DNA from: a virus
Taxonomy: Duplodnaviria; Heunggongvirae; Uroviricota; Caudoviricetes
Length of the DNA: 64,000 nucleotides
Reading direction: 5' to 3' (one strand)
IMG/VR virus record: IMGVR_UViG_3300012956_000001
Coordinates: 25,730 to 89,729 of that record
Made by a program: the position numbers and the translations under genes. Positions 44,796-44,875 of this stretch are shown here, one piece after another (the stretch's first letter is position 1; each line of letters opens with the position of its first letter). The notes beneath the pieces are model-generated. The model had not been told where the DNA came from. It saw only the letters and a program-made list of their open reading frames with translations, and made no database searches.

Positions 44796-44875
44796 GGGCC
44801 GTGTAAGTCGTCATCGACGGATGACTATGGTGCAAACCCAGCTAGCGGAGATCGGTTCGAATCCGATACGGTCCA
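44796..44875 (+). ncRNA. Mini tmRNA-like RNA (tRNA-like domain only)
   Basis: gggccgt/acggtcc-a with G3:U70; TCGACGG; canonical T arm; no tag ORF. Confidence 0.6.

Follow-up and report, generated by a model that had tools for sequence, protein, structure and literature searches.

What is an 80-nt tRNA-like element with the ends of a tmRNA, and no message between them, doing in the tRNA array of a phage that also encodes a full-length tmRNA? The phage genome (G000; 217,729 bp), a complete virus record bounded by direct terminal repeats, carries 59 tRNA genes called by ARAGORN in addition to the full tmRNA, encodes a CCA-adding enzyme, and contains no gene for SmpB. The element lies in what we call the window, the whole stretch of 64,000 nt that was analyzed (positions 25730-89729 of the record), and starts 3 nt after the end of tRNA-Leu(GAG), a spacing common to many tRNAs of the array (Table 1). 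A sequence-only reading of this locus had proposed a tRNA-like domain (TLD) without a message. We find that TLD-only RNAs are already known in phages and that the element is at best an odd relative of them, a variant at the edge of that kind whose function is uncertain. The reading that we prefer, to which we give even chances, is that it is a real lineage-specific, alanine-type tRNA-like gene, an aberrant derivative of a TLD and not a canonical member of the TLD-only family.

Table 1. Coordinates of the 80-nt element, its parts, and the features of the window discussed with it.
Feature	Position in window	Strand	Detail
Whole 80-nt tRNA-like element	44796..44875	+	in phage tRNA array
Acceptor stem, 5' strand GGGCCGU	44796..44802	+	7/7 pairs with 44868-44874; G3 opposite U70
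D-side hairpin GUCAUC-GACG-GAUGAC	44810..44825	+	six Watson-Crick pairs and a tetraloop; in MFE and ensemble folds
UCGACGG (tmRNA-type motif)	44814-44820	+	inside the D-side hairpin; read from sequence
Central imperfect hairpin CUAUGG-UGCAAAC-CCA(GC)UAG	44825..44845	+	read from sequence; low predicted probability
CGGAG, counterpart of tmRNA CGGAC	44846..44850	+	directly 5' of the T stem
T arm AUCGG-UUCGAAU-CCGAU	44851..44867	+	5/5 T-stem pairs
Acceptor 3' strand ACGGUCC and discriminator A (A73)	44868..44875	+	CCA not encoded
Promoter-like site TTGACA-17-TATATT	44325..44353	+	consensus scan, 11/12 matches; putative function
ORF P0001, 105 aa, synteny anchor	44361..44678	+	homologues of 49-60% identity in IMG/VR and metagenomes
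tRNA-Leu(GAG)	44719..44792	+	ARAGORN; Rfam tRNA 53.6 bits; kept in syntenic L109
Promoter-like site TTGACA-17-TATACT with TG	44877..44905	+	begins 2 nt past the 80-nt element
PTH2-family peptidyl-tRNA hydrolase, copy 1	51064..51450 (G000 76793-77179)	+	PF01981, 106.4 bits
PTH2-family peptidyl-tRNA hydrolase, copy 2	52192..52509 (G000 77921-78238)	+	PF01981, 57.3 bits
Full-length phage tmRNA, tag AEYALPLAA	55929..56266	+	ARAGORN; Rfam RF00023 133.8 bits

The resemblance on which the sequence-only reading was built is genuine. Both sequences confirm that the ends of the element parallel those of the phage tmRNA, which reads GGGGCCG...UUCGACGGA...CGGAC-T arm-CGGCUCC-A: the two have in common an acceptor stem with G3:U70, the 8-mer UCGACGGA (p = 0.022 against shuffles, with its position in the 5' part of the element left unused), CGGA ahead of the T stem, and a T loop, UUCGAAU, that is the same in each. 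The acceptor and T stems of the element are intact in all 12 pairs, and an encoded CCA is absent from it, from tRNA-Leu(GAG), and from the phage tmRNA alike. Unlike the tmRNA, the element lacks helix 2, pseudoknots, a resume codon, and a tag; its fourth acceptor pair is C-G where the tmRNA has G-C, and the GGC of the tmRNA D-loop is replaced by GUC followed by extra bases. The claim that a hairpin of ~25 nt takes the place of the pseudoknots and the tag ORF also stands: exactly 25 nt separate UCGACGG from CGGAG, and an imperfect hairpin of low predicted probability can form there, where the tmRNA has its helix 2, pseudoknots, and tag ORF. We considered two specific origins and rejected both. 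Deletion from the phage's own tmRNA is contradicted by acceptor and T stems that differ, the 8-mer and a generic T loop being all that is common, and an origin from tRNA-Cys(GCA) at 49242-49315, hinted at by a global alignment and by a relaxed ARAGORN call, is not significant (p = 0.23). Descent from a TLD of some kind nevertheless seems rather more likely than coincidence.

Standard tools recognize the element as neither of the two things that it resembles. ARAGORN made no call on it at default settings and no tmRNA call with -m; with -ps90 it drew a poor cloverleaf, labeled tRNA-Cys(gca), in which three of five anticodon-stem pairs form. The best score in the Rfam tRNA clan was 11.2 bits, for cyano_tmRNA (threshold 70), and no model of the clan scored higher; the gathering threshold of RF00005 is 29 bits. 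The element is thus not a canonical tRNA (RF00005; tRNA-Ala or tRNA-Cys) and, with only 25 nt between the halves of its TLD, not a full or two-piece tmRNA (RF00023, RF01851, and the like). It has no anticodon arm and is therefore unable to decode.

A better standard of comparison is provided by the TLD-only RNAs of other phages. Mycobacteriophage DS6A was listed as having a "TLD only" tmRNA by Hudson, Lau and Williams, who describe a molecule like it as a strong inhibitor of tmRNA that may act through titration of SmpB (PMC4131195); a 2025 database paper again describes inhibition of the endogenous E. coli tmRNA by the DS6A form and adds plastid and mitochondrial tmRNA forms lacking a CDS (PMC11915505). 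We scanned IMG/VR for UCGACGG, GGA, and a T loop at the spacing of such a mini-tmRNA, requiring nothing else. This two-motif pattern returned 89 loci, 72 of them with a perfect 7-bp acceptor stem, and those that also start with GGG and measure 84 nt or less amount to 53 distinct sequences, which with few exceptions follow the scheme GGGG...GG.UUCGACGG-helix-small hairpin-CGGAC-T arm-...CUCCA. Among the 89 matches, the combination of seven paired acceptor positions, an initial GGG, and a length not above 84 nt denoted a family member every time. Covariance models were built from 15 members (R1) and then from 57 (R2), the latter being the distinct members, 71-82 nt long, that model-based realignment recovered. 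Across these 57, 97% of the cells are paired and G3:U70 is universal (57/57); helix 2a, which starts where the C of GAC pairs with the G of GGA, is 92% paired with compensatory changes at six of its seven pairs; and the covariation score of the family was reached by none of 500 shuffles. The CGGAG form found in our element is used by 7 of 56 members, and some members sit among phage tRNAs.

The viral loci examined also yielded several observations on how such genes are annotated and how they vary. At four of them (L010, L018, L026, and L084) ARAGORN stretches mini-tmRNA genes into false full-length tmRNAs with implausibly long tags of 24-30 aa by pairing the 3' end of the mini gene with a distant upstream GGGG; it reported no true full tmRNA beside any mini gene of the family (L071 has one, but its match was not a mini). 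One IMG/VR contig, L078, carries a 76-nt TLD-only RNA (2020-2095; 69.7 bits) and, ~1 kb away, a 63-nt copy (981-1043; 32.7 bits) with the same 5' half and no CGGAC, which may be a decaying or shortened duplicate. Two further RNAs of the alanine type in viral contigs, with G3:U70 and A73, belong neither to tRNA-Ala nor to this family: an 82-nt RNA without UCGAC (L087:1061-1142) and a 106-nt RNA with AUCGACGGAU (L137, approximately 9371-9476).

Measured against this family, the element is close to it and outside it. On R2 it scores 38.1 bits (E about 2e-6), the top match both in the window and in the whole 217.7-kb genome. Family members score 60.8-87.6 bits, and the DS6A RNA, which is outside the training set and does not fit the search pattern, scores 61.4 bits. 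Below the element come further tRNA-like elements at the fringe, drawn from 127 kb of viral loci (32.7 bits at most), the best tRNA-Ala of this genome (28.7 bits), and the best match in five related phage records (26.4 bits); the three tRNA-Ala genes of the phage are its next-best R2 matches. The element therefore stands 5-10 bits over any non-TLD sequence, a resemblance beyond chance, and 23 bits under the weakest TLD-only RNA; its margin of 9 bits over tRNA-Ala is moderate. In the covariance search for TLD-only RNAs that the sequence-only reading had called for, the element is the best match of its genome, at a score below that of every member. Pairwise identities put it on the fringe of the family: the element averages 0.56 to the members and reaches 0.67 with its nearest neighbor, where the 5th percentile of all pairs in the family is 0.57 and the lowest nearest-neighbor value is 0.68.

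The shortfall has a clear structural location. The element has the 7-bp acceptor stem with G3:U70 and a discriminator A, and it has the UCGAC...GGA(C/G) core with a canonical T arm. Its D-loop analogue, however, is 11 nt long and has no GG, whereas that of the members is an open loop of 6-10 nt with GG in 56 of 56; in the R2 alignment the element shows AAGU, against mostly NGGU in the members, and about four extra bases. Only two helix 2a pairs are in register, against a family median of seven uninterrupted pairs, and the alignment flags the remaining ones as nonstandard. The claim of a TLD without a message is accordingly sound as to the resemblance, and the kind of molecule that it invoked exists in phages; it does not hold for the D-loop GG, helix 2a, or the score on the family model.

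Folding predictions point in the same direction. With the acceptor stem and T arm enforced, two registers of a 6-bp D-side hairpin account for 0.79 and 0.20 of the ensemble, ~0.99 jointly, and a TLD-like fold with an open D-loop has a share of ~0 and is 9-10 kcal/mol less stable. The predicted fold, GUCAUC/GAUGAC, is the alternative hairpin that the sequence-only reading had itself named as refuting a TLD, and among the 58 aligned sequences the element has the strongest hairpin of this sort. As a control, the consensus helix 2a of the family members has a median predicted probability of 0.82. Because about a fifth of these true members are predicted poorly, the argument from folding is supportive rather than decisive, and because thermodynamic prediction is imperfect, protein binding could open the D-side hairpin. 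SmpB reportedly depends on a D-loop that is single-stranded and on contacts between the D- and T-loops (PMC3968760), and the review literature describes the TLD D-loop as having no stem. Given a D region that is predicted to be closed, the missing GG, and a helix 2a that is out of register, canonical binding of SmpB by the element is doubtful.

Comparative data place the element within a single lineage. An exact scan of IMG/VR with a 26-mer from it gave no matches; a blastn search of GenBank phages matched only the neighboring tRNA-Leu, not the element; and megablast with the initial 15 kb of the window matched nothing. Scans of IMG/VR with the 16-mer hairpin and for relatives of the hairpin type (ATCGACGGAT...T loop) gave 12 matches each, which we rejected as unrelated coding or other sequence in the first case and as a heterogeneous set containing no homologue in the second; L079 also has a CAUC-GACG-GAUG hairpin, but in a 106-nt RNA that lacks G3:U70. 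With no homologue found, there is no covariation to support any fold of the element. The syntenic metagenomic locus L109, whose P0001 homologue is 58% identical to ORF P0001, keeps the order P0001, tRNA-Leu(GAG), promoter, tRNA-Leu(UAG), tRNA-Leu(CAA), and tRNA-Gly(UCC), and has small ORFs at the place of the missing element. The TATACT -10 hexamer and a leader with CUGGUGGCGGGG are conserved between L109 and the window upstream of tRNA-Leu(UAG) (L109:1190-1319 and window 44877-44960). In five related records, a set that includes one of 166.6 kb at 89% completeness, no sequence exceeds 26.4 bits on the family model. In IMG/VR relatives the P0001 homologue precedes a full tmRNA by ~0.8 kb, and no mini element is present; across the more distant relatives L001-L007 and L113 the distance is ~0.8-1.0 kb and the tmRNA has the tag GNYNLALAA. 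On these comparisons the element is lineage specific and occupies a variable spot. Its absence from relatives fits a recent or dispensable element, and an old pseudogene is hard to reconcile with 12 acceptor and T-stem pairs that are all perfect.

Could the element still work as a TLD-only mini-tmRNA, binding host SmpB either as a sponge, as proposed for DS6A, or to deliver alanine to stalled ribosomes without a tag? Such RNAs exist and are common, with 57 distinct members in one IMG/VR scan and a covarying helix 2a, and the DS6A RNA inhibits E. coli tmRNA (PMC4131195; PMC11915505). The element retains G3:U70, A73, UCGAC, and GGAG, its size is roughly right, and on paper an irregular helix is possible (C23-G52 and G24-C51, a 5-nt bulge, and six further pairs). 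Its score falls far short of the 60.8 bits of the weakest member and the 61.4 bits of DS6A, however; the D-loop analogue lacks a GG that no member lacks; the predicted probability of a TLD-like fold is about zero; the single-stranded D-loop and the loop-loop contacts on which SmpB reportedly depends (PMC3968760) are not what the hairpin fold would offer; and the element is not conserved in relatives. The phage, moreover, has no SmpB of its own, and a sponge would strike its own full tmRNA as well, which makes a simple sponge less plausible if both RNAs are present at the same time. We regard this reading as unlikely.

A second possibility is that the element is a degenerate or aberrant paralogue, tRNA-Ala-like or tRNA-Cys-like, from a redundant tRNA set, and that its tmRNA-type motifs are coincidental. 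The window holds at least three other tRNA-like elements on the + strand that combine seven paired acceptor positions with a canonical T arm and on which ARAGORN is silent, at 17021-17117, 18749-18823, and 37151-37219 (97, 75, and 69 nt); none of them has TLD motifs, and together they suggest that aberrant tRNA paralogues are common in this phage. A fourth uncalled element, at 40654-40719, was matched by the Rfam tRNA model only (33.9 bits). The tRNA-Cys(gca) cloverleaf that ARAGORN drew under -ps90, a predicted fold that is itself cloverleaf-like, with the D-side hairpin and a stub at the anticodon position, and the acceptor pairs 1-4 and 7 held in common with the tRNA-Ala at 40384-40456 can all be read in favor of such a paralogue. 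Against it, the central part is not significantly similar to tRNA-Cys (p = 0.23), the element scores 9 bits above every tRNA-Ala seen, and its 12 acceptor and T-stem pairs would not all survive random decay. The joint presence of UCGACGG and CGGAG at TLD positions with alanine identity is improbable by chance, and in IMG/VR that same combination marked the members of the family. A paralogue with coincidental motifs seems to us improbable to the same degree as a working mini-tmRNA.

Under the preferred reading, an aberrant TLD derivative that is a real gene, the element may be a young, decaying, or repurposed copy. Its neighborhood suggests how the RNA would be made. The likely transcription unit runs from the promoter-like site at 44325 through P0001 and tRNA-Leu(GAG) to the element, which would be cotranscribed with them, and the promoter-like site that follows would start the next unit, tRNA-Leu(UAG). 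ORF P0001 has no Pfam or PHROG match, and the families of the other neighboring ORFs tested were uninformative, except for an HD-domain phosphohydrolase at 46025-46684. RNase P would cut at G1, 3 nt past tRNA-Leu(GAG); 3' trimming would be followed by addition of CCA, possibly by the phage CCA-adding enzyme. The combination of G3:U70 and A73 is the identity set of tRNA-Ala, of alanine minihelices, and of tmRNA, and minihelices with G3:U70 are substrates of AlaRS. Host AlaRS would thus recognize G3:U70 and A73 and charge the RNA with alanine, and we think that the RNA is probably made and charged in this way. The closed D hairpin would then bury UCGACGG and make entry into stalled ribosomes or efficient titration of SmpB doubtful, and any effect on trans-translation would be a weak competition for SmpB, AlaRS, or EF-Tu.

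Other RNA genes of the window deserve mention. Between tRNA-Pro and tRNA-Gln, a + strand segment at 48526-48789 matches the Rfam model of bacterial RNase P class A over its full span in only 264 nt (100.1 bits against a threshold of 100; E 2e-29), and an RNase P RNA encoded by the phage would bear on the processing of the tRNA array, the 80-nt element included. A GOLLD RNA (187.5 bits) occupies 47342-47801 on the + strand with tRNA-Lys(UUU) nested within it at 47406-47476. Between the two PTH2 genes, again on the + strand, lies a tRNA with the anticodon CUA (51863-51938), called tRNA-Pyl by ARAGORN, which is a potential amber suppressor.

Two more speculative roles can be set beside these readings. 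An alanine-accepting RNA without an anticodon could have a job outside trans-translation, as a decoy for host factors acting on the acceptor ends of tRNAs or as an Ala-tRNA donor to, or competitor for, nonribosomal users; the intact acceptor/T minihelix with the rest remodeled, the known charging of G3:U70 minihelices by AlaRS, and a lineage-specific gene at a variable spot would be consistent with this, but no associated gene, conservation, or precedent was identified, and we hold it very unlikely. It is no more probable, and so little to be expected, that the hairpin masks the SmpB-binding core in an alanine-charged TLD, giving a switchable RNA or one independent of SmpB. Beside the full tmRNA and two Pth2 hydrolases, such an RNA would either end stalled translation by adding one alanine without a degradation tag or tune host and phage trans-translation during infection; the sequence-only reading had tentatively paired the element with two Pth2 enzymes, and both genes exist (PF01981), but nothing links Pth2 to the 80-nt RNA.

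Phages are known to use tag-less mini-tmRNAs, which are believed to disturb the ribosome-rescue and tagging system of the host, and the element is of interest chiefly because it marks the boundary of that class: G3:U70, UCGACGG, and CGGAG alone do not establish a working TLD, and TLD calls, whether automated or made by eye, need to be checked for the D-loop GG and for helix 2a. Should it prove functional, it would be the first case in this analysis of such an RNA beside a full phage tmRNA, and its closed D region would bear on how much of a TLD is needed by SmpB, AlaRS, and the ribosome.

Among known systems, the nearest is the DS6A TLD-only RNA (JN698994, 28478-28557), which is likewise encoded by a phage, ~80 nt long, and free of a tag ORF and pseudoknots. 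With it and with the mini-tmRNA family the element shares the 7-bp acceptor stem with G3:U70 and A73, the UCGAC...GGA(C/G) core, and the canonical T arm. DS6A and all members scored have an open D-loop analogue, 6-10 nt long and with a GG, and a covarying, in-register helix 2a, neither of which the element has, and, unlike theirs, its phage also has a full tmRNA. The tag-less organellar tmRNAs of jakobid and oomycete mitochondria, and the ~65-bp plastid forms of Mallomonadaceae, are similarly reduced nearly to a TLD and are thought to act without a tag (PMC11915505); they co-occur with a targeted SmpB, and the likeness noted here is one of published description. From tRNA-Ala the element differs in lacking both an anticodon arm and a canonical D arm with GG, and the Rfam tRNA model fails on it; what it shares with tRNA-Ala and with the alanine minihelices is the identity set itself, G3:U70 and A73, displayed on an acceptor/T-arm minihelix.
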